DNA from: a virus
Taxonomy: Duplodnaviria; Caudoviricetes
Length of the DNA stretch: 55,283 nt
Direction: 5' to 3' (one strand)
IMG/VR virus record: IMGVR_UViG_3300032239_000671
Coordinates: 1 to 55,283 of that record
The first letter of the stretch is position 1. The number at the start of each line of letters is the position of its first letter. The notes under the pieces are model-generated. The model did no database searches. It saw only the letters and a program-made list of their open reading frames with translations, and was not told the DNA's origin. Both the position numbers and the translations under genes were made by a program. Of the stretch, positions 6,984-44,757 are shown one piece after another.

Positions 6984-7834
6984 GAAAAGCATTATTTTTA
7001 TTTGTAACAGTTCTTGGGGCAACAGTTACCCCTGCACAAGCAGCACCGGAACCTTCAATTGTTGTTATTGATTCCGGAATGAACACTTCTTTGTTTAAAA
7101 ATGTTATAGCTGAGTACTGCGTGGTAGAGATGTTTACTTGCCCTAACGGTAAACCACAGATGGAAGGTATTGGAGCAGCAAACATTCCCGTTTCTACCAA
7201 TGTCACCCTTACACATGGAACAGAAATGGCTTCAGTTATTGCTCAAGTAAACCCAACTGCAAACATCATTCCAATAAGGATTGTAGGAATTGCTTCCAAT
7301 GGTTACCCAGGGTTGTATAGTAATAATGCTGTTAAATCAGCATTAGATTGGGTACTAGTTAATGTAACAAAATATAACATTCGTATTGTTAATATTTCAC
7401 AAGGCAAAATATTTGCTAATTGTGGTGTGCCAGAAGGTATGGCAGCAGATGTTTCTCAATTAAAAACATTGGGCGTAACAGTTGTAGCAGCTACAGGTAA
7501 CGACTCTAATAGAACTGCAATGATGAGCCCAGCATGTCTTCCAAATGTAGTTTCGGTTGGAGCAACTGATAATCCAGATTCTGGAACAACTGGAAAAACT
7601 TGGAATCCAACAGCAAAACCTTACATTGCTAGATATAGTAATGGAACTGCACAAACTACCTATTACACAAATGCACGTTTTAAAGTATTGCAACCTAACG
7701 GAACAACAAAATTTATGGTTGGCACATCTAATTCTGCAGCAGCAATATCTGCATGGTTATTAACTCATCCAACACCTGACACAACTACAGCAAGTAATGA
7801 ATGGTTAACGGGAAGGTATGTATTCATTCCATGA
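6980..7834 (+). CDS. Secreted subtilisin-like serine protease (S8)
   Basis: Signal peptide ending AQA; VIDSG (Asp), HGT (His), ATGN (oxyanion Asn), GTS (Ser). Confidence 0.88.
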   Translation: MRKALFLFVTVLGATVTPAQAAPEPSIVVIDSGMNTSLFKNVIAEYCVVEMFTCPNGKPQMEGIGAANIPVSTNVTLTHGTEMASVIAQVNPTANIIPIRIVGIASNGYPGLYSNNAVKSALDWVLVNVTKYNIRIVNISQGKIFANCGVPEGMAADVSQLKTLGVTVVAATGNDSNRTAMMSPACLPNVVSVGATDNPDSGTTGKTWNPTAKPYIARYSNGTAQTTYYTNARFKVLQPNGTTKFMVGTSNSAAAISAWLLTHPTPDTTTASNEWLTGRYVFIP

Positions 7835-8367
7835 TTATTGGGCTAACAGGGTATGCACGTTCCGGAAAAGATACTGTTGCAAATATTCTTGTAGAGAATT
7901 ATGGGTATAAACGAATTGCATTTGCCGATAAAATACGGGAATTATTATATGAAACTAATCCACAAGTAGGTGGAAATAGATTGCAACATTTAATATCTAC
8001 TTATGGATGGGAAGTTGCTAAATCACAACCAGAGGTAAGGCATTTGCTGCAATCTTTGGGGGTTGGTGCTCGTAAAACTTTTGGAGACAATCATTGGATT
8101 GTTGAAGCGTTAAAAAACATAACCCGTGAAGGCAATTACGTAATAACAGATGTACGATTTAAAAACGAAGCGGAATGGTTAAAAGATATTTACAATGCAG
8201 AAATTTGGCGGGTTACACGACCAGGAGTAAAAGCAATTAATTCCCACATTTCTGAAACTCAATTAGACGATTATAAATTTGATTTTACTTTACACAACGA
8301 GGGCACACTTGAAGAACTAGGATGGCTAGTTCAAACAAGAATGGGTTCCCTCAAAAATGACCAGTAA
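7831..8367 (+). CDS. Deoxynucleoside monophosphate kinase
   Basis: IIGLTGYARSGKDT P-loop, FAD, ITDVRFKNE, HISE; start at ATGA overlap. Confidence 0.88.
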   Translation: MIIGLTGYARSGKDTVANILVENYGYKRIAFADKIRELLYETNPQVGGNRLQHLISTYGWEVAKSQPEVRHLLQSLGVGARKTFGDNHWIVEALKNITREGNYVITDVRFKNEAEWLKDIYNAEIWRVTRPGVKAINSHISETQLDDYKFDFTLHNEGTLEELGWLVQTRMGSLKNDQ

Positions 8368-8950
8368 ATTAATTGACGGCGGTTTAGAAAAAACAGGCAA
8401 CGTAACTATTGGTATTGACCAATCGTTAACGGGGTTTGCGTTAACTGTACTATCTGCAGATGACCCAACAAAACATTTAACATGGGTATATAAATCTCCT
8501 TATTTTGGTATTGAGCGTCTTGTAGATATCCGTCAATGGTTAACTGACACACTTAATTACATTGAAATGGAAATTGAGATGAACATTGTGGACATTGCCA
8601 TGGAAGGCACTGTTCTTGCAAGTCAAGCAGCGTTGGTTCTTGGTGAGTTGTCTGCCACAGTAAGACTTGCTATTTATGATTTATTTGACGATGACGGGGA
8701 TTGCCGTCGTTATCCTTTAAAAGTTCCTCCAATGACATTAAAAAAGTACGCAGCAGGTAAAGGTAACGCCAAAAAACAGGAAATGCTTTTACAAATTTAT
8801 AAACGATGGGGCGTAGAGTTTAACGACGATAATGCTGCTGATTCCTATGCTTTGGCACGCCTTGTAGGAAAATTTTCAATTAATGAGGTTGAAAAGGCAG
8901 TAGTCGTTCAAATGTCAGACCCCAAATACAGAGACGCATCAAGGTTTTAA
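8357..8950 (+). CDS. ruvC: RuvC-like Holliday junction resolvase
   Basis: IGIDQSLTG, AMEG, LKKYAAGKGNAKK, DDNAADSYAL. Confidence 0.85.
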   Translation: MTSKLIDGGLEKTGNVTIGIDQSLTGFALTVLSADDPTKHLTWVYKSPYFGIERLVDIRQWLTDTLNYIEMEIEMNIVDIAMEGTVLASQAALVLGELSATVRLAIYDLFDDDGDCRRYPLKVPPMTLKKYAAGKGNAKKQEMLLQIYKRWGVEFNDDNAADSYALARLVGKFSINEVEKAVVVQMSDPKYRDASRF

Positions 8951-9003
8951 ACGTATCCTTAAGTTTGGGAGTGGCATACCAAACCGAACTAAAGGACTAA
9001 CAA

Positions 9004-9297
9004 TTGAACGACACACCTGAGGTAGTACCGGCTGAAGAGCCATTCCTACGAGTTAGCGCATCATCTAATCCACAAAGCGTTGCATCAGCAATTGCTCACG
9101 CAATCTACGATAAGCGTGAAGTTAAACTTCGTGCTGTAGGTGCAGGCGCTGTAAACCAAGCAGTAAAAGCCATCGCTATTGCCCGTGGGTACGTGGCACC
9201 TCGTGGCATGGATTTAACTGATAAGCCAGGATTTACCACCATTGAATCACGAGATGGTGAAATTTCTGCAATTGTTTTTCACATTACAGCGAGCTAA
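9004..9297 (+). CDS. spoVS: SpoVS-family (Alba-like) protein
   Basis: LRVSASSNPQSVASAIA..RAVGAGAVNQAVKAIAIARGY; TTG start with RBS AAAGGA. Confidence 0.92.
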   Translation: MNDTPEVVPAEEPFLRVSASSNPQSVASAIAHAIYDKREVKLRAVGAGAVNQAVKAIAIARGYVAPRGMDLTDKPGFTTIESRDGEISAIVFHITAS

Positions 9298-9333
9298 AAC
9301 CGCCGTATCCTTATACCAACGCAAGGAGTCAAA

Positions 9334-9783
9334 ATGGCTAAATGGACAGACTTAGGTCACGCTATGCGTCGTCGCATGGGCGCCCCATCATCACATCTAG
9401 AGGCAGCAGGTAAATCTATGACAAGAAATCACATGACACCAGAAGAAGTAATTGCTTCTGCAGAACACGCTAACAGCGCACGTCGTTACATGAGCATGGA
9501 TGCAGCAAAATCTGCATCTCCTGTTATGCCAGAACGTGGCACAGCTATTGCAAAGAAGAATACACAAGCATCTGACCCAACATCGGGTGGAAAAGCAAAT
9601 CGTAAAAATATTTCTGCAGGTAATGCAGTTCAATCTGAACGTATGGGTGCTAAGTTCCGTGTTATCGCTTCTGTTCCAAGTGTTGACCCAGCAGCGGGTC
9701 CAACTATGGCAAACGCAAAGACTGTTCCATCAGTTATGGGTCAATCAGGTAATTTTGATACAGGTATGAATTCAGCACGATAA
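9334..9783 (+). CDS. Hypothetical low-complexity protein
   Basis: RBS AAGGAG; TAATG coupling to the next ORF. Confidence 0.7.
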   Translation: MAKWTDLGHAMRRRMGAPSSHLEAAGKSMTRNHMTPEEVIASAEHANSARRYMSMDAAKSASPVMPERGTAIAKKNTQASDPTSGGKANRKNISAGNAVQSERMGAKFRVIASVPSVDPAAGPTMANAKTVPSVMGQSGNFDTGMNSAR

Positions 9784-10013
9784 TGGCTGATATTAAATAC
9801 AACGATTACGGAACACCGCATCACGACCCACAAGTTGATTTGCCGTTATCTTTAAGCGACCAAACAAACACCACAACTAAAAAGAATAGAGTGTGGAAAA
9901 GTGTTAGTGGTGTTCTGTCATCTCAGAACTTTGGTAGTGTTCAAAGTTTTGACGACAAGGCGCCAACTCAAGCGCCAGAGTCTGACAAAGGGGCTCGTTT
10001 CGGAGGAGCTTAA
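9783..10013 (+). CDS. Hypothetical protein
   Basis: Translationally coupled ORF. Confidence 0.6.
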   Translation: MADIKYNDYGTPHHDPQVDLPLSLSDQTNTTTKKNRVWKSVSGVLSSQNFGSVQSFDDKAPTQAPESDKGARFGGA

Positions 10014-10177
10014 TCTTCATTTTCAGGAGTAAGCCCATGGAGGGCACAATGTTTTTCGTACCGTTGGTCAATTAAATCCCCGTCAATTGTGGGCTCACCA
10101 ATACGAGCATCACAAATTTCGCACTCAAGCACCCAAAGTGTTGGGTTATAGTCTATGGCAACAACATCTACTGACAT
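10010..10177 (-). CDS. Small Zn-finger-like protein (55 aa, not in ORF track)
   Basis: MSVDVV..CEIC..HCALH..; RBS AAAGGAG; shares a TTAA stop overlap with the convergent gene. Confidence 0.7.
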   Translation of the reverse strand: MSVDVVAIDYNPTLWVLECEICDARIGEPTIDGDLIDQRYEKHCALHGLTPENED

Positions 10178-10227
10178 TTGAACTCCTTTACACTGACATT
10201 TAACTCGTTAAGAAGGAAAATAGTAAC

Positions 10228-10797
10228 ATGAGTACTAGACCTGGTCAGCCACCTGAAGGGCTAATGGATGTTGTAAAAACCCGTCCTTCGTACTCTAAGG
10301 AAGAAGTACGAGTTTTAGCAAGTAATCCAAATGGCGCTCAAAATTTTATTGATTCTACAAATAATTATGGTGGGGCTACCATAAACCTAAAGAGTGGACA
10401 AGTAGCTAACCCTGGAGACAGACTTCATTTAGTTGGTAAAGAACCATCAAAACTTAGCGGACATCCAGTTGACACAGAGTTTGAAAGTGTTGGAAAATCT
10501 CACCCAAAATTAAGCGCAAAACAATTTGCTTCTCATTTTGTACGCTTAAGTGCACATGCTGCAGATGACAAAGCAAGTATGGGTAGTTGGGTAGATAACA
10601 AAAGTAACAAATCAAGAAAAAAAGGTGTACAGATTGATTTGTCTACTGGTCATAGATATAAAAGAACTGCGGAAAAGAAGATGATTTCTCGTAATGAAGA
10701 TGCAATCTTTAGTATGCACAATATGCGTGCAACTCGCAATGAAGCTGCTCGTAAACGACACGGAATTACTGAACCTCGTCCACCAAAGGTAAACTAA
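10228..10797 (+). CDS. Hypothetical basic protein
   Basis: Long ORF with an apparent leaderless start (CTGACA-17-GAAAAT-6-ATG). Confidence 0.7.
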   Translation: MSTRPGQPPEGLMDVVKTRPSYSKEEVRVLASNPNGAQNFIDSTNNYGGATINLKSGQVANPGDRLHLVGKEPSKLSGHPVDTEFESVGKSHPKLSAKQFASHFVRLSAHAADDKASMGSWVDNKSNKSRKKGVQIDLSTGHRYKRTAEKKMISRNEDAIFSMHNMRATRNEAARKRHGITEPRPPKVN

Positions 10798-11330
10798 TGG
10801 CAGGCGGCCCTAACAACTTTTCCCCACAACAAAATTGGCAATCATTAGGTGGTAATGGTCTATACGGCTATAACAACCAAGGTGGTGCAGGAACTCCTGT
10901 AGCTCGTGACTCTATGGATGCGTCACGCATTGGTGTGGGCAGAATTCCATCTGCAGAATATCCAGATGGGTACCTTGGCACTATCCGCTCACGTCGTGAT
11001 GACCGTTTGTTGGATAGTATCAAGAACCGTGTCAACCAAAAAGCGTATCAACGTGGAGTGCACAAAGGTGAGCGTATTGAGCCATCTATGTACTTTTGGC
11101 CTATGGGCATGAGTGATATGTCAGGTATTGAACGTCAGATGAAAGCTGCTTACGTAAATGTCAATGGAGTAAATGTATTCCAAACAATGCGCAATGCACC
11201 AGAGGTAAGTTTGGTTCCTGCCCCACACTTGGTTAACGATGGCAAAGCAAACACTATTGCTACAGAGCCGGGACAAATTAATGAACGCCGTCAAGCGATG
11301 CTTGCATATTTGAAACCAGCGTGGCGTTAA
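10797..11330 (+). CDS. Hypothetical protein
   Basis: TAATG-coupled ORF. Confidence 0.7.
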   Translation: MAGGPNNFSPQQNWQSLGGNGLYGYNNQGGAGTPVARDSMDASRIGVGRIPSAEYPDGYLGTIRSRRDDRLLDSIKNRVNQKAYQRGVHKGERIEPSMYFWPMGMSDMSGIERQMKAAYVNVNGVNVFQTMRNAPEVSLVPAPHLVNDGKANTIATEPGQINERRQAMLAYLKPAWR

Positions 11331-11557
11331 TGGACAACTTAAATCCTAATCAATTCACTAAGTCAGGCAAGCGCCGCCACAAGATGATGAAGTTTACAAC
11401 GTATGGTGGAACTAACCTTTTCTGTGAGCACTGCGACCAAACTGTCAAGCATCCAACTAAGACAAATAAACTTGGTGAACCTATTGGTATGTGGGATTAC
11501 AGAGATAAAGAAGGAATGAAAGAAGCTTGGGAAGCTCATAAGGCGGAGAACCAGTGA
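11330..11557 (+). CDS. Hypothetical protein (CxxC; N-terminal DNLNPNQF tag)
   Basis: TAATG-coupled start. Confidence 0.6.
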   Translation: MDNLNPNQFTKSGKRRHKMMKFTTYGGTNLFCEHCDQTVKHPTKTNKLGEPIGMWDYRDKEGMKEAWEAHKAENQ

Positions 11558-11916
11558 CACAAAAATTTGATGGAGTTTATGACCACACCAAACCATGGCG
11601 AGCACCCGTACAACCTGACCAAGTTGCAAAACGCTGGTCGTACTTGGGCCCATGGGCAACCAACATGGAGCGCCTAACACAACAGGCCCTGATGGTTGCC
11701 ACTATTCCAGGAGCAGATATTCAAGCCATGGTGCGACCACCGTTACCGCAAATCCAATTATTTCCAGCACGTTACGGATACGGAGACCGTCGTTCACCAG
11801 GAATTGAAGATGTAGTAACTATTGACCGTCAATACCATGAGCCACGTATTTCTTGGTTCTCTGGTAGCCCAGCAGGGTATGGCGGAACAGCTCGTAATGA
11901 TATTGGAGGTATCTGA
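11554..11916 (+). CDS. Hypothetical protein
   Basis: GTGA overlap, RBS GGAG. Confidence 0.65.
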   Translation: MTQKFDGVYDHTKPWRAPVQPDQVAKRWSYLGPWATNMERLTQQALMVATIPGADIQAMVRPPLPQIQLFPARYGYGDRRSPGIEDVVTIDRQYHEPRISWFSGSPAGYGGTARNDIGGI

Positions 11917-12116
11917 TGTTTGATGGCGATGGCGCAGAGATGATGGAATTACAAGCAAAACAAATTGCCGATAATGCAACCAAATACCGAGGTTCTCACC
12001 CTTGCCCTACTTGTGGGGTTATTTTAAATCCAGTAGAAGCTCTATACAGTAAAGGCATGTGCCAATCTTGTTACGCTCAAAAAATGTCTGACCGTATAAA
12101 GCGGAAAATGGTGTAA
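11916..12116 (+). CDS. Small Zn-finger protein
   Basis: CPTC...CQSC; RBS GGAGG. Confidence 0.65.
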   Translation: MFDGDGAEMMELQAKQIADNATKYRGSHPCPTCGVILNPVEALYSKGMCQSCYAQKMSDRIKRKMV

Positions 12117-12118
12117 CC

Positions 12119-12805
12119 ATGCCACGTAAAAAGAAAGCACCTGTACCGTCAGTTGTACGTAACTCAAAAACTGGTCGTGCAGAAAAGCCAACTCCCCCTA
12201 CTGGAGTTCCTAATTTTGTTAAACCAAAAGAAAAACCTCAACTTAAATCCTCTTTAAAGAAGACACGCACAGGAAAGAAAATTTCTGGGGGAAAAGTAGC
12301 AGTACCAGCAGTCAAAATTGACCCAGAGACAAAACGACTTCGTGCCACTACTGAAGCAGAGAAGACTGAAGCAAGAACCACTGTTCTTCCAGATGCACCT
12401 ATCCCACAAGAGCCAAGACCACAAGGTGTTATGGGTATGGGGGCAACTCCTATCAGAAAAGGCGCAGCAGTTAGTTACCCAGTAATAAAAGCAGCAGTAG
12501 ATGCAGCTAGGACTCACCTCACTGCAATGCAAAACAATCCTCCGGGTTCGCCGGAGCACCACGCAGCACATGAAGCATTTAATGCTATCCATGCCAATAT
12601 AGGTCGGATGTCGCCAGAGCTCCATGTTACTTTAGGTCAAGCAAAACACTTTGTAACTAACCCCGGAAAGGGAAGTGATGAGATGTTAGCCATGACCCAT
12701 AAAGCAATAAATACTAGACTTGGCATTATACGAACAGCACATGAAGATAACCTCCGACGGTCTGCCGAAGGTCGCACTAAGAAAGCAGGAAAAAATGGCA
12801 GTTAA
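12119..12805 (+). CDS. Hypothetical Lys/Pro-rich protein
   Basis: Long ORF in a tightly packed operon. Confidence 0.65.
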   Translation: MPRKKKAPVPSVVRNSKTGRAEKPTPPTGVPNFVKPKEKPQLKSSLKKTRTGKKISGGKVAVPAVKIDPETKRLRATTEAEKTEARTTVLPDAPIPQEPRPQGVMGMGATPIRKGAAVSYPVIKAAVDAARTHLTAMQNNPPGSPEHHAAHEAFNAIHANIGRMSPELHVTLGQAKHFVTNPGKGSDEMLAMTHKAINTRLGIIRTAHEDNLRRSAEGRTKKAGKNGS

Positions 12806-13001
12806 CTCATCTCGTTCAATGAACACCTCATTGAATGAAGGCTCAACAGACGGTAAGTACCGCAAAGTTCGCCCAGATACAGAGGTAATCCCTGGTCTTG
12901 GAGACGAAGCAACGCTTGATAACCGTCAATCACTTCATCCATTTTACGGTTATGGGTTTATTACATCTGAATACCCAAACAAAGTGAATCCAGGTAAGTA
13001 A
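12795..13001 (+). CDS. Hypothetical protein
   Basis: Start re-assigned to the ATG after RBS AGGA (MAVNSSRS...). Confidence 0.6.
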   Translation: MAVNSSRSMNTSLNEGSTDGKYRKVRPDTEVIPGLGDEATLDNRQSLHPFYGYGFITSEYPNKVNPGK

Positions 13002-13003
13002 TC

Positions 13004-13183
13004 ATGGTTCGCAAAGTTGTTTCTATGAAGTCAGCACAGTTCCAAGATGCTATTACGAAGGTACATCCACAAGGAATGACTGTTAATCCAAAAAATCAAA
13101 CTGTTAAATATTTTAACGATGGAAAAGTTGTTATTTCCAATAAAGACAGTTTTCTTAATAGAACTAAGAGAAAAGGCAAGTAA
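13004..13183 (+). CDS. Hypothetical protein (59 aa, not in ORF track)
   Basis: MVRKVVSMKSAQF...KRKGK; fills the gap exactly between neighbours. Confidence 0.6.
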   Translation: MVRKVVSMKSAQFQDAITKVHPQGMTVNPKNQTVKYFNDGKVVISNKDSFLNRTKRKGK

Positions 13184-13185
13184 TC

Positions 13186-13497
13186 ATGGCTATCATTCGT
13201 AAAGGCGACAAGGTTGCAGAAGAAGCACTAAAAAAGCGTGCAAGAGAACAACACCGCAATAGACTATTGGCTTCTGATGAAACAAAACGTAAAGCAGGTT
13301 TAGAAACGGTTGCTGGAAAAAGAGTCAAAAAAACTCAAGACGGAAAAACAAAAGCAACTAAAGTAAATAAAAATGCTAATATCACAAAATCCGAATCTCC
13401 AGTAAGTGGAAGCGCTATTACTAAAGCAAAAATTCATCAAATTAAAGACCCAGTAAAAAGAAAAGCTGCTTTAGATAAATTTAATGGATGGGACTAA
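13186..13497 (+). CDS. Hypothetical highly basic protein
   Basis: Lys-rich ORF in operon. Confidence 0.6.
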   Translation: MAIIRKGDKVAEEALKKRAREQHRNRLLASDETKRKAGLETVAGKRVKKTQDGKTKATKVNKNANITKSESPVSGSAITKAKIHQIKDPVKRKAALDKFNGWD

Positions 13498-13499
13498 TA

Positions 13500-13889
13500 G
13501 TGGCTAAGCCAAAGCGTACTTCTAACCGTAATGCAGGCCCACTTATTGCTGCTCGTATTCCTTTTAAAGGCAATAATTTTGAAGGACACGAAGGAGGACC
13601 CGTTTCAGCAGGTTGGCTTCGTGGAACTGAATTTCACGAACAAATTAAGCGTTTAAAAAATCCCGATTACACAGTTAATGACCCACGTTCTAACACACCT
13701 TTAGCTGTACACCATGAAGATGGTTGGTATTACCCAGACACGTTCCATAGCCCAACCACTGCACAGAAACAAGCCGTTACTCGTCGTGCGATTAATGTAA
13801 AAAGTGGTCGTGAGCAACTTATGGAAAAACGTGCAGCAAAACGTAAGGCTAAAGCAGACGCAGCAGAACAGGGTCTTTGGAACAAGTAA
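13500..13889 (+). CDS. Hypothetical protein
   Basis: GTG start after the upstream stop; ends EQGLWNK. Confidence 0.6.
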   Translation: MAKPKRTSNRNAGPLIAARIPFKGNNFEGHEGGPVSAGWLRGTEFHEQIKRLKNPDYTVNDPRSNTPLAVHHEDGWYYPDTFHSPTTAQKQAVTRRAINVKSGREQLMEKRAAKRKAKADAAEQGLWNK

Positions 13890-14125: not shown

Positions 14126-14674
14126 ATGAGTAACGTACCTATTCTTGGCGAAAAGAAAATGGACAATGAACCGATGTTTCGGTTGTTATATTGTCTTGTT
14201 TGTCAAACTTTAGAAGAACTTCCACCGTACGATGGCGACCCAGAATTAGATATGTTATTGGCTGTTGCTTGTGAAACTCACGTATTTCCTTCCGGAGAAC
14301 CTCACAAAGGCAAATTGTTTGTATTGCCATTGCGAGTTTGGGCAAAACCTGAATCTAAAAAAGAAGTAATACGACAAATTAAAGGTGGAGGCTCTGCAGG
14401 TCTTGCAGAAATTGACGACACTTTTTATGAATCTCGTTCCACATTTATGGAAGGAGCTATGGAGTGCTACAAACGTCATAACAAACCTAAAGACGGATGT
14501 ACAGATTGGCGCAATAAAGAAAAATTACTTGTACCAAATACAGTAAAAGAACGTAAAGCAGAAGGTATGGCAAAGTATACGGAAGAATCTGGTCCAAAAA
14601 CTTACCTATGTGACTTCTGTCCAGTAGCAATTGGCGTAGCCCAACGAAAAAGAAAGTTGATGGGAATAGAATGA
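14126..14674 (+). CDS. Hypothetical Cys/His-rich (Zn-binding) protein
   Basis: CLVC, H..H, C..H..C, CDFC; RBS AAGGAG. Confidence 0.7.
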   Translation: MSNVPILGEKKMDNEPMFRLLYCLVCQTLEELPPYDGDPELDMLLAVACETHVFPSGEPHKGKLFVLPLRVWAKPESKKEVIRQIKGGGSAGLAEIDDTFYESRSTFMEGAMECYKRHNKPKDGCTDWRNKEKLLVPNTVKERKAEGMAKYTEESGPKTYLCDFCPVAIGVAQRKRKLMGIE

Positions 14675-14961
14675 GCGAAGATATAAAGCCACAATCAGCA
14701 TTTACTGTTGTATTAAACCCTGACGGTAGTTTCTTTACCCAACCAGCAGAAGCCGGAGAATTTGTAGAGCGAACAGCAACTACCTTTGATATTTACCGTG
14801 CTTGCAAAGAAATTGCTACGGAAATTGAAAATCAGATATTAGCTGACAGAGTTGCTAAAACAGTTATTGCTGCTTTACAGCCTGCAGACCTTTCTTCTGA
14901 AAATAAAACAAAGATAATTGACGCTTTAAGCGATAGAGGCATCGTACCGCCTCTAAACTAG
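14671..14961 (+). CDS. Hypothetical protein
   Basis: ATGA overlap. Confidence 0.65.
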   Translation: MSEDIKPQSAFTVVLNPDGSFFTQPAEAGEFVERTATTFDIYRACKEIATEIENQILADRVAKTVIAALQPADLSSENKTKIIDALSDRGIVPPLN

Positions 14962-14965
14962 GGAT

Positions 14966-15898
14966 ATGTTTAGAAACTTAGAGAGTAACTCCAACCCTAT
15001 ACACATTCAGGGTTCGGCTACTTCATACTTTTCTGCCCCTGAAAAAGAATTAGACCCAAAGTTGTTTGATGGAACAACTTTAAAAGGTTGGGTACGTAAC
15101 GGTATTTTGCAGTTGTTATTTGGGTTTCTCAACGAACAATACCGTCACCCAGATTTGTGGGCACATGTATGGATTGCTGGCTCTGGGGTGTCTTACCAAT
15201 GGTCGGCAGCCCGTGAACCAGGAGATTTAGATGTTCTTATAGGAGTTAACTACATCCAATTTCGTAAAGCACATCCAGAGTTTAATGGTCTTGGCGATGT
15301 AGAAATTAGCAAAATGTTAAATGAAGATTTTCGTGAACATTTGCAACCTGAAACAGAAAACTGGAATGGTTTTGAAGTTACTTTTTACGTAAATCCTGGG
15401 GCTACAGATATTCGTTCTATCAATCCTTATGCAGCCTACGATTTAACTCACAATGAGTGGACAGTTCACCCTGCACAATCCACAGCACCTGAAAACCGTG
15501 TGTGGGATGAAGTAGCAAAACGTGATTTATCACGAGCAATGGATGTGGTTACACGTTACACCAGTGCTCTAAATGAAGTACATAATGCACAAAACGATGC
15601 AGCACGTCGCAATGCTGAAACAAGACTACACACAGCAATGATTCAAGGTTCAGCAATGTATGATGACATTCATGGAGCCCGTAAGTTTGCTTTCCGCCCT
15701 GAAGGAGAGGGTTACTCAGATTTTTACAACTACAGATGGCAGGCCGGAAAGAAGTACGGAACCGTACCTGCCCTACGAAAGATGTCTGAGTACTGGTCAG
15801 CATACAAAGCGCAACAAGCAGATGATACCTATGGCGTTGAACTGCCAGATACTCAGACCCTAATTAGAAGAGCGGCAACGTACCGAGCAAAGGGATAG
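14966..15898 (+). CDS. Pol-beta-superfamily nucleotidyltransferase
   Basis: hG[S]..DxD motif: WIAGSGVSYQW..GDLDVLI, third acidic strand FEVTFYV, AAYDL..W. Confidence 0.75.
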   Translation: MFRNLESNSNPIHIQGSATSYFSAPEKELDPKLFDGTTLKGWVRNGILQLLFGFLNEQYRHPDLWAHVWIAGSGVSYQWSAAREPGDLDVLIGVNYIQFRKAHPEFNGLGDVEISKMLNEDFREHLQPETENWNGFEVTFYVNPGATDIRSINPYAAYDLTHNEWTVHPAQSTAPENRVWDEVAKRDLSRAMDVVTRYTSALNEVHNAQNDAARRNAETRLHTAMIQGSAMYDDIHGARKFAFRPEGEGYSDFYNYRWQAGKKYGTVPALRKMSEYWSAYKAQQADDTYGVELPDTQTLIRRAATYRAKG

Positions 15899-16387
15899 AT
15901 GAACATACTCGTATCACTAGATGGCGTACTAAGTTCGGAATCAGGGGAACCAATCCGAGCAGGAGTAGCGCTTTACTATGCTCTTAACATCAACAATCGT
16001 GTAGCAATTATGACTTCTCGTGGAGAAACAGATGCTAAACACTGGCTACAGTCGCACGGAATTATCAACTATGACGATTTGATTGATTCTTCTTTTGCAT
16101 TGGAAGGTGAAGACCTAAAGAAGAGACAGTTTATTATGTCTCGTTCACGAGCCCCTATTGAGATGTATGTAGACGCTGACCCCAGCATGTGTGCTTGGGT
16201 GTTTGAAGAACAACGAGTACCAGCACTCCTCTTTAACCATCCAGGATTTGCTGTTGTTGAGAATAGGCCAGATGCTCCAAAGAAAGTACGACGCTGGTCA
16301 GACATTGAAGCGTCAATTAATCGTGTCAATATATCTCGTTCAGAACAAGCCCAAAAGCCAAAAGAAACGGAACTCTGGTCTGACTAA
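15899..16387 (+). CDS. HAD-fold protein with a degenerate motif I
   Basis: ILVSLDGVL (Ser where the nucleophile Asp is expected), IMTSR, YVDADP. Confidence 0.6.
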   Translation: MNILVSLDGVLSSESGEPIRAGVALYYALNINNRVAIMTSRGETDAKHWLQSHGIINYDDLIDSSFALEGEDLKKRQFIMSRSRAPIEMYVDADPSMCAWVFEEQRVPALLFNHPGFAVVENRPDAPKKVRRWSDIEASINRVNISRSEQAQKPKETELWSD

Positions 16388-17880
16388 TGAACCTCATCTT
16401 CTCCGGGTCTGAAGTAGGTTCCAACCGTAATCTTCTTTTAGGTCAAAAAGTTGAGTCAATGGGACTCAACTATTGGACTTTACGCAAAAGAGGTTTGCCT
16501 ACAACCAAAAGATGGTTGATTAGTGAGCACTATGACTCTCAAGTAAAGGTTTACATTGAGTCAGGTGCAGCTCAAGCTGAGAAGGCGGGACTATCAAAAG
16601 AAGAATTAACTTCTTTAGCAGCTGATTATCAAGAGTTCCTGGTTGATAACAGCGAACGAGCTGCAGCTTACATGGAGTTTGATTCGTTGATTTTGGGAAA
16701 AGAATGGGTAGAAGCCCAACGTCCATTTTATGAACATGACCCCAAGTTTTGGGTTGTTTGGCATGAAGAATACGGGCTTCCAGCCCTTAAAACCATGTCT
16801 CAAACTTACAAAAATGTAGTTGTACCCAACGACGAGATTGAGTCTGTAACCAGCCTAGCAGCCCTTACACGGGGTTATCAGAGGCAGTTTGGAACCGCTT
16901 ACCACGCCTTAGCCTGTGCCAAGCCAGACAACCTACGACAGGTACCATTTAACACCGCCAGCACATTGTCATGGCTTTCCCCCATGAGAAGAGGCGAAAC
17001 AATCGTTTGGGATGGCACTCAGATTAAACGATACCCAAAGCGCATGAAAGCCCAAGCAAGACCTCGCTATAAGACAATAGTAGAGAAAGCGGGATTAGAC
17101 TATTTGGGGTTTAGCCAAGATAACACCCTAGAAGCAACTAAAGTTGCTGTCTGGTCGTACCTACAGTTGGAGTCATCTATGGACAAGAAATCACCTAATT
17201 TCCACATCATTGATGGGGGTAAAGAACCCGTAGTATCTGATAACAACGACACCTTGTACACAGGGTTAGGCATGGAACTAGGGGGGTACTCTTCTGATAA
17301 CAGTGTGCCTGAAGTGCGGAAAGAGTTGATAGAAAGAGACGCTTCAGAAGTTCAAAATTTACCTGTATTTGGGTACAAAATGAAGACTGTAGTTGAGACG
17401 GATGATAACGGCAAAGATATTTTGATGGACATCCCCGTAGTCCAAACTCAACAATCTTCTTTAAGACAATGCGACACTTGCTTTGTTGCCGCCAACTGCC
17501 CAGCCTTTAAACCTTCTAACACTTGCGCTTTTAACTTGCCAATTGAGGTAAAGACTAAAGAACAATTAAAGGCTTTGATGACTTCAATGATTGAAATGCA
17601 GGGTCAAAGAGTGGCTTTTATGCGCTTTGCTGAAGAAATGAACGGTGGCTATGCAGACCCTAACGTTTCTCAAGAAGTTGACCGCCTTATAAAAATGGTT
17701 AAAGAAGTTAATGACATGGCATCTGATAAAGAGTTTGTGCAGATTACAGCCAGCCGTCAATCTTCAGGCGGAGTTCTTTCTGCCATCTTTGGTGACAAAG
17801 CTCAAGCTCTAAGAGAGTTACCTGAAGCCCTTAAAGAAGATACAGTTACAAAAATTATTCAGTCTTCAATAGAAGACTAG
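16387..17880 (+). CDS. Divergent TGT/DpdA-like barrel fused to a Cys4 domain and helical C-terminus
   Basis: VYIESGA, FWVVWH, YHALAC, PFNTASTLSW resemble the DSG / PVxH / HxLG / SxDSxSW motifs of TGT-like proteins; CDTC-x5-C-x8-C; ORF certain, fold tentative. Confidence 0.45.
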   Translation: MNLIFSGSEVGSNRNLLLGQKVESMGLNYWTLRKRGLPTTKRWLISEHYDSQVKVYIESGAAQAEKAGLSKEELTSLAADYQEFLVDNSERAAAYMEFDSLILGKEWVEAQRPFYEHDPKFWVVWHEEYGLPALKTMSQTYKNVVVPNDEIESVTSLAALTRGYQRQFGTAYHALACAKPDNLRQVPFNTASTLSWLSPMRRGETIVWDGTQIKRYPKRMKAQARPRYKTIVEKAGLDYLGFSQDNTLEATKVAVWSYLQLESSMDKKSPNFHIIDGGKEPVVSDNNDTLYTGLGMELGGYSSDNSVPEVRKELIERDASEVQNLPVFGYKMKTVVETDDNGKDILMDIPVVQTQQSSLRQCDTCFVAANCPAFKPSNTCAFNLPIEVKTKEQLKALMTSMIEMQGQRVAFMRFAEEMNGGYADPNVSQEVDRLIKMVKEVNDMASDKEFVQITASRQSSGGVLSAIFGDKAQALRELPEALKEDTVTKIIQSSIED

Positions 17881-20682: not shown

Positions 20683-22008
20683 TCACTCCAAATAGTCATT
20701 AACAACCTCGGCTGCCTTTGACTGCTGGTGACGGATACGGTGCAGATACCTCTCCGTCGTTACGATTGACTGGTGACCTAACCTTTCCTTAACCTCATGC
20801 ACATCTACTCCGTTCTTTAACAACTGAGTAGCGTTAGCGTGCCGAAGGTCGTGAGTGGTGGGATACCAACCAATACCTGACTTGTTGATGGCTTCGTTCC
20901 AAATGGCTCTCCATTTGTCACGAGGTAGGTGGCTTTCGCTAAGGCTTTTGCTATGGCTTTTGCTAGTGCTTCTGCTATGGCTTTCCCTTTTGCTAAGGCT
21001 TTCTACTTTGCCCTTTCCCTTGTCCTTTCTATAGTGACTACGGTATTCCTTTACCGCTTGCTTACACGCTTCACACCGACAACCGCCCACATTGTACGAA
21101 TACGCTGTTGCGTGTTGGAATGTTCTGCTCCCAACGGTGTAAGGCTTCCCTACGCTTGTCGTAGGGCTTCCTATTTTACTAGGCTTCTCAATTAACTGCT
21201 TTGAGAAGACTAATGCTTCTTTTGATAGGTCTTTTGTCTTTACAAAGGCTTTTATTTCTGCTACGAGTTTCTGAGATAGGACTACAGTTCTTTTGTTGCC
21301 GTTCTTGGTAGCAGGCACTACTAGGAATCTTTGCACCTCGGAATGATACTTATACCCTACATCACTAACAGTTCGTCTTACATAGACTTCTTTTGATTGA
21401 AAGTTAAAATCTTTTACTCTTAGTTCTGTTGCTTCCCCATATCGGCAGCCAGAAGCAATGAGGAAACGAGCCAAAAGACGACTCCCCTCTGTTGGAAGTT
21501 CTTTTAGAATCTTTTGGAAGTCTTCAGGCTCTAGTGAGTATGTGGGGTCAGGCTTTGGTACGGCTATCTTTATGCGGTGTGTGGGATTGGTGGCTATCGC
21601 TTCATCTTCTATGGCGAGCCTAAAGAGAGAACCTAAAGAAGTCTTTAAGTGTGAGAGAGTGCTTGGACTTAACCCTTTGCTTGCTAGGGTATCTAGTAAT
21701 GCTTTAATATCTTTCTTGGTAATGGCGGAGATGCGCCGAGTACCTAAAGAAGGTTGAGCATACTTCTTTAACAGGGTTAAATAAGTTTTGCGGGTGATTA
21801 CACGAATCTCTGTGTTGTTCGTAAGTTGTTCAAGATAATTGTTGAATGTCTTTTGATTTTCGGGCATTAGATTAAACTCACCTTCTTCGGCAAGTAATCC
21901 AGCGTTGAGTGCTTTAGCCCTAGAGTTGAAAGTTCCTACCGATTTGACTTTTCCATCTTTTCGGTAATAGGCGGTAAATCTGCCATTTCTTGCTACTGTG
22001 TAAGCCAT
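20683..22008 (-). CDS. int: Tyrosine recombinase / integrase with an internal Zn-finger and repeat insertion
   Basis: SGCRYGE (R), ATK (K), HDLRH, LGHQS, TERY; N-terminal arm-binding and core-binding regions. Confidence 0.9.
   Translation of the reverse strand: MAYTVARNGRFTAYYRKDGKVKSVGTFNSRAKALNAGLLAEEGEFNLMPENQKTFNNYLEQLTNNTEIRVITRKTYLTLLKKYAQPSLGTRRISAITKKDIKALLDTLASKGLSPSTLSHLKTSLGSLFRLAIEDEAIATNPTHRIKIAVPKPDPTYSLEPEDFQKILKELPTEGSRLLARFLIASGCRYGEATELRVKDFNFQSKEVYVRRTVSDVGYKYHSEVQRFLVVPATKNGNKRTVVLSQKLVAEIKAFVKTKDLSKEALVFSKQLIEKPSKIGSPTTSVGKPYTVGSRTFQHATAYSYNVGGCRCEACKQAVKEYRSHYRKDKGKGKVESLSKRESHSRSTSKSHSKSLSESHLPRDKWRAIWNEAINKSGIGWYPTTHDLRHANATQLLKNGVDVHEVKERLGHQSIVTTERYLHRIRHQQSKAAEVVNDYLE
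20931..21003 (-). repeat. Degenerate 12-bp tandem repeat AAAGCC(A/T)TAGCA inside the recombinase gene
   Basis: About 5 units encoding ESLSKRESHSRSTSKSHSKSLSESH; the same AAAAGCCATAGCAAAAGC recurs in non-coding DNA at ~20116-20133. Confidence 0.75.
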
Positions 22009-35985: not shown

Positions 35986-36060
35986 TCCTCGTTCGTCCAA
36001 CCGGCAGGACAACGCCCTTTGAAGGCGTGAATCGTGGTCCGAATCCACGGCGGGGAGCCA
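35986..36060 (+). tRNA. tRNA-Gln (UUG)
   Basis: Cloverleaf: acceptor TCCTCGT/GCGGGGA, D stem GTCC/GGAC, anticodon arm ACGCC-CT TTG AA-GGCGT, T arm CGTGG-TCCGAAT-CCACG, encoded CCA. Confidence 0.92.
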
Positions 36061-40217: not shown

Positions 40218-40571
40218 GTGAGAAAAGCTAAGCCAAAAGCCGTCGTATACGATTTAGACCACACTCTTACAAAAAAGAAAGTGGCTCATAATGCTCGTAG
40301 GGATGCCGCTAAAGGAGAAAAAGTTTTGGTTCTTACCTCTCGTCCCTCATCTCAACGCAAGAGCACAGAAAAGTTTTTAAAAGATAACAAAATTCCAGAT
40401 TCTAAACTTGTAATGCGTCCTAAGGGCGATACCAGGAAAGACTCTGTTTCTAAAAAAGACCAGTACGAAAAGAAGATTAAGGGAAAATACAACGTCAAGA
40501 AAGCCTACGACGACAAGCCTTCTAATGTTAAAATGCTCCGTAACGAGGGAATTAAAACAAAGAAGGTATAA
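40218..40571 (+). CDS. HAD-family phosphatase (PNKP phosphatase-domain-like), very basic
   Basis: YDLDHTL, LTSRP, MRPKGD.RKD..K, YDD.P.NV.ML. Confidence 0.75.
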   Translation: MRKAKPKAVVYDLDHTLTKKKVAHNARRDAAKGEKVLVLTSRPSSQRKSTEKFLKDNKIPDSKLVMRPKGDTRKDSVSKKDQYEKKIKGKYNVKKAYDDKPSNVKMLRNEGIKTKKV

Positions 40572-42246: not shown

Positions 42247-44757
42247 TTGAAAACACTGCGTAAAATCGCAGCACTATTCGTATTCCTAGCCGCTATTGGT
42301 TTACCAGCGGTATTCGTACCATCAAGCCATGCTGTTACTCTTGAAGAGTACAATGCTCAAGTTGCTGCTGCACAAGCAGAGGTGACTGCTGCACAAGCAG
42401 CCGTAAACACAGCACAGTTAAACTACGATACACAGCTCATTTCTGACGGGTCTACTGTCACGACTGGTATTACCGCAAAGGTATACAACAATACGATGAG
42501 CCGTAACCCAAATGAAGAAAATCTATGTACTACAACTACGCTCTCTCAAATAGCAGCTAACTGGGGCAGTGGCTCAATACTCGGCTGTAATAGTGACCGT
42601 GTAACTATTCACTACTTTGGAACCTTAACTGTTCCAGATACTGGGGCATATCGGTTTAGAAACATTGCTGATGACGGATTTTATTTAACTATTAATGGTC
42701 AAGTAGTCATTGATGAGTGGCGTGATAAAGGGTGTAACGGCTCTTGGGGTGCTCCAATCACTCTTACTGCTGGCACTGCTTACTCTATTGATGGCTGGTA
42801 CTATGAAAATGGTGGAGGAGCTTGTTCTACTCTCTATGTTTCTCAACCATCAGGTAACTGGCAAGTAACTCCAGCATCTTGGTTCGGCACTCCATCCGGA
42901 CAGATGATAAAGGACCCTGCTCTATTAGCCATCTTACAAACTGCTCAACAACGATTGGCTAATGCTCAAGCGGCTTTAGCAGCAATTCCAGCCTATGTCC
43001 CCCCAATTAATCCTCCTACCAGTTTAATCGGTCAAGTAGACAGCGGAACAGTGACCCTAAGTTGGACACCACCAAGTGACGGCACTCTTCCAGAGCGTTA
43101 TGCAATTTTCTTTAGTAATGGGACCTCTGCCGGATGGGGAGTTGCAACCGGCAATGTAGGCGACGCTAATGCTCTCAATACAACCATCACATTAAGTCAA
43201 GACGTATTTGCTGGCAGTGGTGGTTTGGATTCAACATACACTTTTTCAATTCGTTCAGATAACGACACTTTACATATGTATTCAACTCAATCAAACACAT
43301 TAACTTTGTTGGTACCTAACATGGCTCGGATTGCATCCGAACAAGCTGCGGCTGCTGCAGCAGAAGCAGCAAGAATAGCTGCTGAACAAGCAGCTGCTGC
43401 TGAAGCAGCACGTGTTGCAGCAGAACAAGCAGCAGCCGCAGCAGCAGAAGCAGCACGTGTTGCAGCAGAACAAGCAGCTGTTGTTGAAGCAGCACGACAA
43501 GCAGAAGCGGAACGTGTAGCTGCGATTGCAAGGCAGGAAGAACTAAACAGACAAGCAGCTATTGCAGCCGAGTTAGCACGACAATCTGAGGTTGCTCGTC
43601 AAGCAGAGCTAGCACGACAAGCTGCAGCAGCAGAGCAAGCACGTCAAGCAGAGATTGCAAAGCAAGCTGCAGAAGCAGAAGCTGCACGTGTTGCAGCTGA
43701 AAAAGCCGCAGCAGAAGAATCTGCTCGTGTTGCTGCAGAAGCTGCAGCTAAGGCAGAAGCCGAACGAATTGCAGCAGAAGCGGCAAAAGCCAAAGCCGAA
43801 GCTGAAGCAAAAGCTGCAGAAGAAGCAGCAGCTAAAGCAGCAGCTGAAAAAGCGGCAGCAGAAGCCGCTGCAGCTAAGGCGGAAGAAGACCGTTTAGCAG
43901 CAGAAGCCGCTGCAAAAGCACAAGCTGAAGCAGATGCTAAAGCAGAGGCAGATAGACTTGCAGCTGAAAAAATTGCAGCAGAACAAGCAGCTAAAGACAA
44001 AGCTGCTGCAGAAGCAGCTGCAAAGGCAGAAGCTGACCGAATTGCTGCAGAAGATGCAGCAAAAGCTAAAGCAGCAGCAGACAAAGCAGCAGCAGACAAA
44101 GCAGCGGCAGACAAAGCAGCAGCAGATAAAGCAGCGGCAGACAAAGCAGCGGCAGATAAAGCAGCGGCAGACAAAGCAGCGGCAGATAAAGCAGCGGCAG
44201 ACAAAGCAGCGGCAGATAAAGCAGCGGCAGACAAAGCAGCGGCAGATAAAGCAGCAGCCGATAAAGCAGCAGCCGATGCAATCGGTGTAACACTTAATAA
44301 TCCAAGTCAGCTATCTGACACTGTGGTAAAAGAAGCTCCAAAAGAAATTCTTGTCCCTCACGTACAAGAAGATAAATCTGGAGTTGAAAATGGCGGTATT
44401 GAATTTTTTGGAACAAAATCTGCACCACAGATTGTTGGAGAAGACGGACAACTAACCCCACCTGCACCACCACCGGGGTCTGGACTACCAATTCCTCCAG
44501 AAGCAATTACTACATCTGATACATTTATTGGACAACCAGGAGGAACAACTTTTAATGCACCCGACATTGCAGTTCCTGTAATACTTGTTCCTTTAGAAGG
44601 AGCAATTGCAGCAGTGCCTGGAGCAGAAGCACTAAATCATGCATTCGTCGCAATGGCGAACATCGGAAACGACATGTCCCCAGTTACAAGAAAGAAAGCC
44701 AAAAAGATTTTGGTTATAACCGTTGCCGTTGCCGCTATACGAAGGAGATTTAAATAA
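42247..44757 (+). CDS. Exported surface protein: signal peptide, PA14 domain, FN3 domain, long Ala-rich coiled-coil stalk, C-terminal anchor
   Basis: SHA cleavage site; NWGSG..G.LTVP.TG.Y.F..ADDG..L.ING..VIDEW..YYENGGGA (PA14); PPTSL..VTLSWTPP..YTFSIR (FN3); ILVITVAVAAIRRR. Confidence 0.8.
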   Translation: MKTLRKIAALFVFLAAIGLPAVFVPSSHAVTLEEYNAQVAAAQAEVTAAQAAVNTAQLNYDTQLISDGSTVTTGITAKVYNNTMSRNPNEENLCTTTTLSQIAANWGSGSILGCNSDRVTIHYFGTLTVPDTGAYRFRNIADDGFYLTINGQVVIDEWRDKGCNGSWGAPITLTAGTAYSIDGWYYENGGGACSTLYVSQPSGNWQVTPASWFGTPSGQMIKDPALLAILQTAQQRLANAQAALAAIPAYVPPINPPTSLIGQVDSGTVTLSWTPPSDGTLPERYAIFFSNGTSAGWGVATGNVGDANALNTTITLSQDVFAGSGGLDSTYTFSIRSDNDTLHMYSTQSNTLTLLVPNMARIASEQAAAAAAEAARIAAEQAAAAEAARVAAEQAAAAAAEAARVAAEQAAVVEAARQAEAERVAAIARQEELNRQAAIAAELARQSEVARQAELARQAAAAEQARQAEIAKQAAEAEAARVAAEKAAAEESARVAAEAAAKAEAERIAAEAAKAKAEAEAKAAEEAAAKAAAEKAAAEAAAAKAEEDRLAAEAAAKAQAEADAKAEADRLAAEKIAAEQAAKDKAAAEAAAKAEADRIAAEDAAKAKAAADKAAADKAAADKAAADKAAADKAAADKAAADKAAADKAAADKAAADKAAADKAAADKAAADKAAADAIGVTLNNPSQLSDTVVKEAPKEILVPHVQEDKSGVENGGIEFFGTKSAPQIVGEDGQLTPPAPPPGSGLPIPPEAITTSDTFIGQPGGTTFNAPDIAVPVILVPLEGAIAAVPGAEALNHAFVAMANIGNDMSPVTRKKAKKILVITVAVAAIRRRFK
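44071..44277 (+). repeat. 15-bp tandem repeat x13-14 encoding (AAADK)n
   Basis: GCAGC(A/G)GCAGA(C/T)AAA units. Confidence 0.95.

Follow-up and report, generated by a model that had tools for sequence, protein, structure and literature searches.

What does a phage gain from keeping a DpdA-like protein whose catalytic residues have been replaced? This question is raised by three adjacent plus-strand genes of a viral genome fragment, the IMG/VR record IMGVR_UViG_3300032239_000671, which was examined over its whole length of 55,283 bp (the window; 56% complete as estimated by CheckV). The genes are g1 (14966..15898, 310 amino acids), encoding a putative pol-beta-type nucleotidyltransferase, g2 (15899..16387, 162 amino acids), encoding a degenerate HAD-like protein, and g3 (16387..17880, 497 amino acids), encoding a predicted TGT/DpdA-type (beta/alpha)8 barrel followed by a linker and a four-cysteine tail. 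An original prediction, made from the sequence, had described them as a nucleotidyltransferase coupled to two apparent pseudo-enzymes. Our comparisons firmly show g3 to be a protein of the DpdA lineage that, judged by its residues, would be unable to carry out the known double-displacement exchange, in a phage lineage that would likewise be unable to make preQ0.

In regard to the fold of g3, which had been only tentatively called a TIM barrel, the structural comparisons speak clearly for the TGT/DpdA type. In the AlphaFold2 (AF2) model built from 84 diverse homologues, residues 1-270 form an eight-stranded beta/alpha barrel with a predicted local distance difference test score (pLDDT) of ~97, and beyond it follow a disordered linker, a beta-hairpin, a cysteine cluster and long helices. 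Residues 1-273 of the model (16387..17205) were superposed by VIA-align with Z scores of 17.6 on arcTGT (1iq8), 17.5 on TGT (1pud) and 17.3 on DpdA (7ui4), with a root-mean-square deviation of 3.3-3.5 over 254-264 aligned residues. Foldseek gave 161 matches at E<=1e-3, and the best 50 PDB matches were all Z. mobilis TGT (E ~1e-5, probability 1.00). At the profile level, the 84-sequence alignment matched CAjan DpdA in hhalign (Prob 97.6%, E 3e-12, 212 columns), and against the single E. coli TGT sequence it aligned over only 27 columns near DSGG (Prob 0.5%). Over its full length g3 falls into phrog_887 of the PHROGs database, annotated as 'queuine tRNA-ribosyltransferase' (E 1.4e-58). No match to g3 was obtained in Pfam, NCBIfam or PADLOC, so that the DpdA models of the latter two and the Pfam TGT model all miss it. 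The Pfam TGT model found nothing in the window, nor in CAjan, Dp-1, BcepGomr, Rosebush or BCD7, and since these five known DpdA phages give no match, it is blind to phage DpdA. Nothing meaningful was retrieved from the PDB by sequence or profile, whether the query was g3 itself, a profile of g3, g1, g2 or the upstream gene g0a, or CAjan DpdA.

Among isolate phages, g3 was found by tblastn in nine records: six of Streptomyces phages (BRock twice, GiJojo, LuckySocke, Alone3 and pSt2308) with 34-35% identity, two of Bacillus phage BCD7 (25%), and one of a Bacteroides phage that is matched in part. When the region was compared with phages by blastn, no match resulted. BCD7 gp021 (YP_007005872), a member of the same PHROG, gives E 2e-40 and 1e-19 with the g3 family profile, and with tblastn matches of 1e-9 to the BRock clade and 2e-4 to the CAjan/Seurat DpdA1 group it forms a bridge between the two. 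In supplementary file 4 of Hutinet et al. 2019, the BCD7 protein appears as a DpdA with FolE, QueD, QueE and QueC alongside, and that of BRock (APC46298) as a singleton. Because of the alignment to CAjan DpdA, the bridging position of BCD7 and these listings, the g3 family can be placed, on sequence and model grounds, as a branch of phage DpdA. It is a large family, with 1604 proteins (90% level) at E<=1e-3 among 7999 scored candidates, and 800 representatives within the same threshold at the 50%-identity level.

The part of g3 beyond the barrel distinguishes this branch. The linker (residues 281-329, 17227..17373) is variable and modelled with low confidence, and the tail (residues 330-497, 17374..17880) starts with the beta-hairpin and carries four cysteines spaced C362-x2-C365-x5-C371-x8-C380 (17470-17526). 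This cluster, already noticed in the original prediction, turned out to be invariant in 84/84 sequences, and the long helices that follow carry a conserved E-x3-GGY-x-DPN motif. By tblastn the tail was recovered in 10 records, only from phages with a long-form DpdA, and PHROGs agrees with this distribution. In BS162P1 (locus L182, 7013-8645) the long-form DpdA is present as two adjacent genes, for a barrel of 275 and a four-cysteine tail of 251 amino acids, the break lying at the position of the g3 linker, and BCD7 gp021 (locus L002, 4947-7220) has at the same position an insert of ~230 amino acids rich in Lys, Glu and Pro. A relation of the tail to terminase small subunits was also considered, as BFVD returned 'Terminase small subunit [Gordonia phage Jumbo]' at E 5e-7, but the template modelling (TM) score of that match is 0.26, the TerL gene lies 31 kb away and the tail is confined to long-form DpdA proteins, and the candidate was rejected.

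The residues needed for exchange were located by counting along the hhalign alignment from CAjan DpdA to g3. According to PMC7544227, the nucleophile of CAjan DpdA is Asp206, the second catalytic aspartate is Asp63, and the base pocket is built of Asp105, His132, Ser64, Phe67 and Phe189. In g3, the nucleophile position is occupied by Ser192 (codon 16960-16962) and that of Asp63 by Glu58 (16558-16560), while the pocket residues correspond to Asp99 (16681-16683), His126 (16762-16764), Ser59, Ala62 and Leu175, respectively. Thus ESG in place of DSG and TAST in place of the catalytic xDS, which the original prediction had pointed out by eye, do stand at catalytic positions, in the local contexts IESG (E58) and NTASTLSW (S192). 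The equivalent nucleophile in Z. mobilis TGT is Asp280. Compared with DpdA1 of CAjan and 9g and with the bacterial DpdA of S. Montevideo (7UI4), g3 shares the homologous barrel and the base-binding Asp and His, and differs in Ser192 for the nucleophile (Asp206 in CAjan, Asp256 in the bacterial protein), in Glu58 for the acid/base residue (Asp63 and Asp95), in Ala62 for the stacking Phe67, in the additional four-cysteine tail and in the absence of preQ0 genes. According to PMC10164549, TGT and DpdA have three invariant aspartates in common, and exchange is abolished when either of the catalytic ones (Asp95 or Asp256, as we interpret the passage) is changed to alanine. Since the aspartate nucleophile is lost, g3 would be unable to run the double-displacement exchange of TGT and DpdA.

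The loss is a property of the family and is not limited to the window. The residue count covered 150 representatives together with the window, GiJojo and BCD7, 153 sequences in total, and position 192 is occupied in 146 of them. Aspartate stands there in just two, P0254 and BCD7, and in none of 82 diverse viral loci (Ser 46, Ala 30, Gly 5, Thr 2), so the homologues also lack the catalytic aspartate. The gene context of P0254 was not recovered in viral or metagenome contigs, where only distant relatives were found, and P0311 was likewise not found. Aspartate at position 189, three residues before the nucleophile position, is present in 47/146 sequences and was examined as a shifted nucleophile; it precedes the modelled strand 8 (190-193) and corresponds to Tyr in CAjan, and was therefore dismissed. 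Across the family, position 58 holds Asp in 87 sequences, Glu in 20, Tyr in 13, His in 8, and Thr and Asn in 3 each. In the freshwater subclade nearest to the window, the DSG motif is replaced with HPG, YPG, HAG or TAK, Asp99 with N, S, T or A, and His126 also varies, although both Asp99 and His126 align to their CAjan counterparts in the g3 of the window. As the DSG motif and Asp99 drift there, the canonical pocket appears, from these substitutions, to be under relaxed constraint in the freshwater subclade.

It could still be argued that g3 exchanges bases on DNA or tRNA, relying on a substitute nucleophile and taking preQ0, preQ1 or some other precursor base from the host. The g3 of the window keeps E58, D99 and H126, with the change of Asp to Glu at 58 being conservative, and Hutinet et al. 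2019, who list the BRock protein as a singleton, discuss precursor supply by the host. They also allow for divergence of singleton DpdAs. Nevertheless, such an exchange is very unlikely in our judgement, with the nucleophile missing in 144/146 family sequences and in every one of the viral loci, the other two aspartates varying in the closest subclade, Asp189 placed before strand 8, and the reported loss of exchange upon alanine substitution in the studied enzyme.

Furthermore, the pathway that would provide the precursor is missing. No queuosine-pathway genes had been noticed in the window, and this was borne out by the absence of Pfam QueC matches and of tblastn matches at E<=1e-3 to FolE, QueC, QueE and QueD of BCD7. 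In a record that is 56% complete such an absence proves little, and the question is settled by near-complete relatives. QueC was not detected in the complete GiJojo genome, QueC and FolE were not detected in five relatives that are 73-87% complete, and among 41 long contigs carrying a nucleophile-less g3, QueC was found in 0/39 records at least 90% complete; one sub-threshold QueC match (E 7.7e-4, 15 bits) came from an 89%-complete record of the same 41. Likewise, tblastn revealed none of FolE, QueC, QueE and QueD of the BCD7 type in the flanks of 83 diverse g3 loci. The Asp-bearing relatives show the opposite arrangement in 3/3 cases, a small sample: folE, queC, queE and queD adjoin the dpdA gene in BCD7, folE and queD adjoin it in CAjan, and in BS162P1, whose barrel contains SVDSVTW, a QueC gene annotated as 'hypothetical' is located immediately upstream. 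The locus is thus not a standard one for 7-deazaguanine modification of DNA, as had been suspected.

BCD7 gp021 offers the closest comparison. It has the same architecture of a TGT-type barrel with a four-cysteine helical tail, and has in common with the g3 family E9, a DSG-type motif, E97, D99, H126, W196 and the cysteine cluster. It differs in keeping the nucleophile aspartate (GDSTTW) beside its preQ0 genes, whereas the window has Ser192 and Glu58 in a lineage without QueC; in addition, neither g0a nor g1 was found in BCD7 by tblastn (g2 was not searched for in the isolate collection).

Loss of one active site does not exclude the gain of another. Residues fixed in the g3 family are E9, E97, W125, W196, W208, D/E204 and the four cysteines, and the acidic ones, together with D99, lie at the C-terminal ends of the barrel strands (E9 79/84, E97 75/84, D99 70/84, D/E204 80/84). 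These could form a hydrolytic or metal-dependent centre, making g3 a DNA glycosylase or a phosphoesterase similar to Endo IV or TatD. Such an enzyme would help to degrade host DNA or to salvage nucleotides, and g1 and g2 would process the nucleotides released. E97 aligns to Val in CAjan DpdA and would hence be a novelty of the clade, the barrel of TGT is noted as structurally akin to Endo IV and TatD in PMC10164549, and the locus is situated among genes for DNA polymerase, recombinase, a deoxynucleoside monophosphate kinase and a class II ribonucleotide reductase. However, both E9 and E97 are already present in BCD7 gp021 despite its aspartate nucleophile and its preQ0 locus; they were in place before the loss and are not necessarily substitutes for the nucleophile. 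E9 is also replaced with His in nine and with Asp in two of the 83 diverse loci that have a residue there, and no nuclease or glycosylase family was matched in Pfam, PHROGs, NCBIfam or PADLOC. We therefore regard a new enzymatic function of this kind as unlikely.

Of the two genes preceding g3, g2 also appears to be devoid of catalytic residues. Its N-terminus, MNILVSLDGV, holds motif I in the form S6-L-D8-G-V (15914-15928), with Ser at the position of the HAD nucleophile aspartate, and Ser, Thr, Ala, Asn or Val are found there in close relatives and in GiJojo gp179. The first aspartate of motif I is absent in 32/32 diverse homologues, the second position varies among D, E, N, S and W, and the only residues invariant in the 32 are G9 and W133. 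The observation of SLDGV in the original prediction therefore stands and extends to the homologues, while the fold itself is weakly supported. Language-model neighbours of g2 are HAD clusters (0.91-0.92), and the order of a motif-II-like hhhTS, a Lys/Arg and a DxDP-like motif resembles that of HAD phosphatases, for instance the phosphatase domain of phage polynucleotide kinase. Its profile reached the HAD entry 3u26 of the PDB at E 0.3, phrog_415 was matched by 2/32 homologues, and hhalign to the polynucleotide kinase phosphatase-like product of the window's open reading frame (ORF) 40218-40568 gave E 0.0011 and Prob 20%, with motifs II to IV in order. Pfam HAD models matched 0/32 homologues, g2 itself had no match in Pfam, NCBIfam or PADLOC, and hhalign produced no alignment to E. 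coli GmhB. As regards ORF 40218-40568 (+, 117 amino acids), its matches to PHROGs 505 and 415, which represent polynucleotide kinase, cover just their C-terminal end on the phosphatase side, and it could be a shortened or an independent HAD-like fragment.

On the other side of g2, g1 retains what a catalyst of its class requires. The Pol-beta GS..DxD signature reported for it (G72-S73...D87-x-D89, 15179..15232) is accompanied by a third carboxylate, E137 (15374-15376), and in 32 aligned homologues reaching down to 31% identity G72, S73, D87 and D89 are invariant and E137 nearly so. The model (pLDDT 90) comprises a nucleotidyltransferase-like domain (~25-165) and a C-terminal helical bundle (~175-310). 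Residues 25-164 superpose on minimal nucleotidyltransferases with Z scores of 6.5 (1ylq), 6.1 (2rff) and 5.9 (1no5), which agrees with the core fold of the class but is below the confidence level of the tools. The Foldseek list is dominated by CD-NTases (DncV, CdnC/D/E/G), ANT, ANT(6), AadA, MNT and CCA enzymes, all at E>=0.03 and none reaching 1e-3, and the bundle yielded unspecific helical matches only. The G-S...D-x-D...E signature is shared with MNT/HI0073-type proteins, ANT and CD-NTases, and g1 differs from them in conserved motifs of its own, SGYFSxPxxxLDPxLF at the N-terminus and H236/R239/N255/W258/Q259/K262 at the C-terminus. No family was matched in Pfam, PHROGs, NCBIfam or PADLOC. 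From its residues and model, g1 is plausibly an active pol-beta-type transferase belonging to no described family.

The association of these genes was followed in two sets of relatives. In 80 close relatives, the order g0a-g0b-g1-g2-g3-ribonucleotide reductase (RNR) is kept wherever the flank allows, and these represent one collinear lineage. In the diverse set of 83 loci, where g3 is 27-60% identical and two loci are on the same contig, g1 and g2 are both upstream of g3 in 63, g2 only in 11, g1 only in two and neither in seven. Co-occurrence of the three genes therefore holds beyond close relatives. Among the seven loci with neither gene, two have no upstream flank, and five with a flank lack both by BLAST and yet keep g0a. 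In most diverse loci g2 abuts or overlaps g3, including those without g1. In some close relatives (loci L006/L007, L035, L055, L056 and others), insertions of ~0.3-0.7 kb were observed at the g1/g2 or the g2/g3 junction, and the Streptomyces phages have an additional gene of 276 amino acids between g2 and g3 (GiJojo gp180), without a family match.

The most constant neighbour of g3 is g0a (14126..14674, +), overlooked by the original prediction. It encodes a Cys/His-rich protein of 182 amino acids, is located upstream of g3 in 78/83 diverse loci, including loci without g1 and g2, and its aligned homologues share the invariant residues C23, C26, H52, C114, C125, C162 and C165. It had no match in Pfam, PHROGs or the PDB. 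Within 50,697 isolate-phage records, g0a and g1 were each found in only six, all of Streptomyces phages and the same ones that have a g3 with Ser or Ala at position 192. The small g0b (14671..14961, +, 96 amino acids) is 43-90% identical in close relatives and detectable in just 1/83 diverse loci.

The gene g1 is dispensable. In 7/8 genomes that are 100% complete and have no g1 near g3, g1 is missing genome-wide, so g3 does not need the transferase; in the eighth (G041), a g0a-g1-g2 cluster is placed ~8 kb from g3. The 614-amino-acid open frame around g1 in G041 was considered as a fusion and rejected as a run-on frame in sequence of high guanine-plus-cytosine content. Together with the greater constancy of g0a, this weakens the idea of a complex centred on the transferase, with dead enzyme folds as its adaptors and conjectural roles in tRNA repair, NMPylation or anti-defence signalling. 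Complex prediction for g3 with g2 scored 0.00 in both runs, which were made without controls, and carries no weight either way.

All of these genes are nevertheless maintained. In six comparisons, with saturated pairs dropped, the ratio of nonsynonymous to synonymous substitution rates (dN/dS) was 0.04-0.15 for g1, 0.05-0.17 for g2 and 0.06-0.09 for g3, next to 0.03-0.10 for the neighbouring RNR; for g0b it was 0.10-0.25. Because the values for g1, g2 and g3 are this low (0.04-0.17), these are working proteins under purifying selection and not decaying genes.

Selection on each gene does not by itself imply a shared task, and the genes could be neighbours by descent only. In such a case g3, alone or with g0a, would have a non-enzymatic role, as a decoy or inhibitor of a host system of the TGT/Dpd type or as a DNA-handling factor related to packaging, with g1 and g2 doing unrelated jobs. 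The genomes missing g1 and the five loci that retain g0a without g1 and g2 agree with this, as does, for packaging, the terminase-like BFVD match, subject to its low TM score. A precedent is QTRT2 (QTRTD1), a non-catalytic TGT paralogue paired with a catalytic one in the eukaryotic queuine TGT heterodimer. QTRT2 resembles g3 in being a conserved TGT fold without catalytic residues, and differs in that the window contains no catalytic TGT or DpdA to pair with (hosts were not searched). The contact of g2 with g3 in most loci, even without g1, stands against mere inheritance of neighbours, and the distance to TerL and the restriction of the tail to long-form DpdA proteins stand against a packaging role. 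Altogether we consider this explanation decidedly unlikely.

The limits of the unit differ from those first proposed. Three ORFs with abutting or overlapping borders were correctly described: g1 and g2 abut, g2 and g3 share one base, and all are co-directional. The leaderless start assigned to g1 does not hold, since the supposed promoter TAAACT (14954-14959) falls on the final codons and the TAG stop of g0b, and the spacer between it and the ATG, AGGGAT, is Shine-Dalgarno-like. As g0b ends 4 nucleotides before g1 and overlaps g0a by 4 nucleotides, the packed unit includes at least five genes, not three. Its first gene, g0a, is preceded by its own AAGGAG. A scan for sigma-70-like promoters gave seven sites versus 12.7 in shuffles, that is, fewer than in shuffled sequence.

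The module sits in the replication and nucleotide-metabolism block of the window. Upstream are genes for a DNA polymerase, a UvsX-like recombinase, WhiB, a Cas4-like exonuclease, the deoxynucleoside monophosphate (dNMP) kinase and RuvC, and the class II RNR gene follows directly downstream of g3; the genes for TerL (48811-50409), portal and major head follow after another ~31 kb. The presence of WhiB suggests an actinobacterial host, as does a relative that carries the label 'Actinobacteria bacterium'. A 441-amino-acid integrase is encoded at 20683-22008 (-; phrog_1, E 1.6e-57), and several related IMG/VR records are classed as 'provirus'; the cultured relative BRock is described as being without lysogeny genes. 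The window has a single tRNA-Gln (anticodon TTG, 35986-36060, +), and BRock carries 29 tRNAs. Within ORF 42247-44757 (+, 836 amino acids, no PHROG match), probably a repetitive or low-complexity structural protein, positions 43501-44500 have a locally high AG count (86 and 68 per 500 nucleotides), with AAG+GAG at 44 and 28 and CTT+CTC at just 3 and 5 per 500 nucleotides. CTT+CTC is also somewhat low, 5-8 per 500 nucleotides, in several bins of 7001-13500 (+), outside g1-g3, these being raw counts. Across g1-g3 (14966-17880) there are 8-21 CTT+CTC per 500 nucleotides, much as in the other plus-strand genes, and hence no depletion of these triplets.

Considering all of the above, we propose that the module belongs to a conserved early gene set, for replication and nucleotide metabolism, of a large lineage of ~100-kb actinobacterial phages, with g0a as a putative metal-binding small protein, g0b, g1 as the presumably active nucleotidyltransferase, g2 as a HAD-like protein without catalytic residues, and g3. 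The latter would have descended from a long-form phage DpdA of the BCD7 gp021 type, composed of the barrel and the four-cysteine helical tail, and would then have lost the aspartate nucleophile, with the acid/base and base-binding residues drifting in the freshwater subclade and no preQ0 pathway feeding the exchange. Held by strong purifying selection with its invariant cysteine tail and the new, clade-specific acidic residues E9 and E97, g3 may act in recognition of nucleic acid, most likely DNA, or in base flipping, instead of guanine exchange. The catalytically dead g2 and g0a could serve as its non-enzymatic partners, and g1, where present, would be the sole conventional catalytic centre, transferring nucleoside monophosphates (NMPs). 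We give this assignment of roles, in which g3 recognises nucleic acid, g0a and g2 assist it without catalysis and g1 is an enzyme that the system can do without, about an even chance of being correct.

Several observations weigh against it. Since the g3 of the window retains E58, D99 and H126, this phage itself may have preserved a guanine-like pocket, and E9 and E97, situated at the catalytic face of the barrel model, could be a replacement catalytic pair. The scores behind the HAD fold of g2 are low, and the genome-wide absence of g1 from seven complete genomes means that g3 can do without the transferase. In addition, all loci of the module come from one deep collinear lineage (~100-116 kb), and the linkage may be largely inherited synteny.

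A more specific version of the proposed recognition role can be imagined, in which g3 is the base-flipping subunit of a phage DNA-marking machine, g0a and g2 are scaffolds, and g1 adds an NMP to the flipped DNA nucleotide; in phages without g1, g3 would then be a shield or a reader. We see only a slim chance for this version, which, if true, would represent a DNA modification chemistry unrelated to 7-deazaguanines.

The consequences for annotation are more immediate. DpdA has been proposed, in PMC10516641, as a signature protein for viral DNA modified with 7-deazaguanines. A large g3 clade, however, bears the labels 'queuine tRNA-ribosyltransferase' or 'dpdA-like' and yet has neither the nucleophile nor the precursor pathway, and such labels mislead. 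For this reason, where modified DNA has been predicted for actinophages from their genomes, among them the cultured Streptomyces phages BRock, GiJojo, LuckySocke, Alone3 and pSt2308, the prediction is probably wrong. A full-text literature search found no account of the nucleophile loss or of the partner genes. Cultured relatives exist, which makes the question accessible to a direct test. In a broader sense, g3 would offer a clean example from nature of an enzyme fold that strong selection has preserved although its chemistry is gone, accompanied by two more apparently non-catalytic partners.

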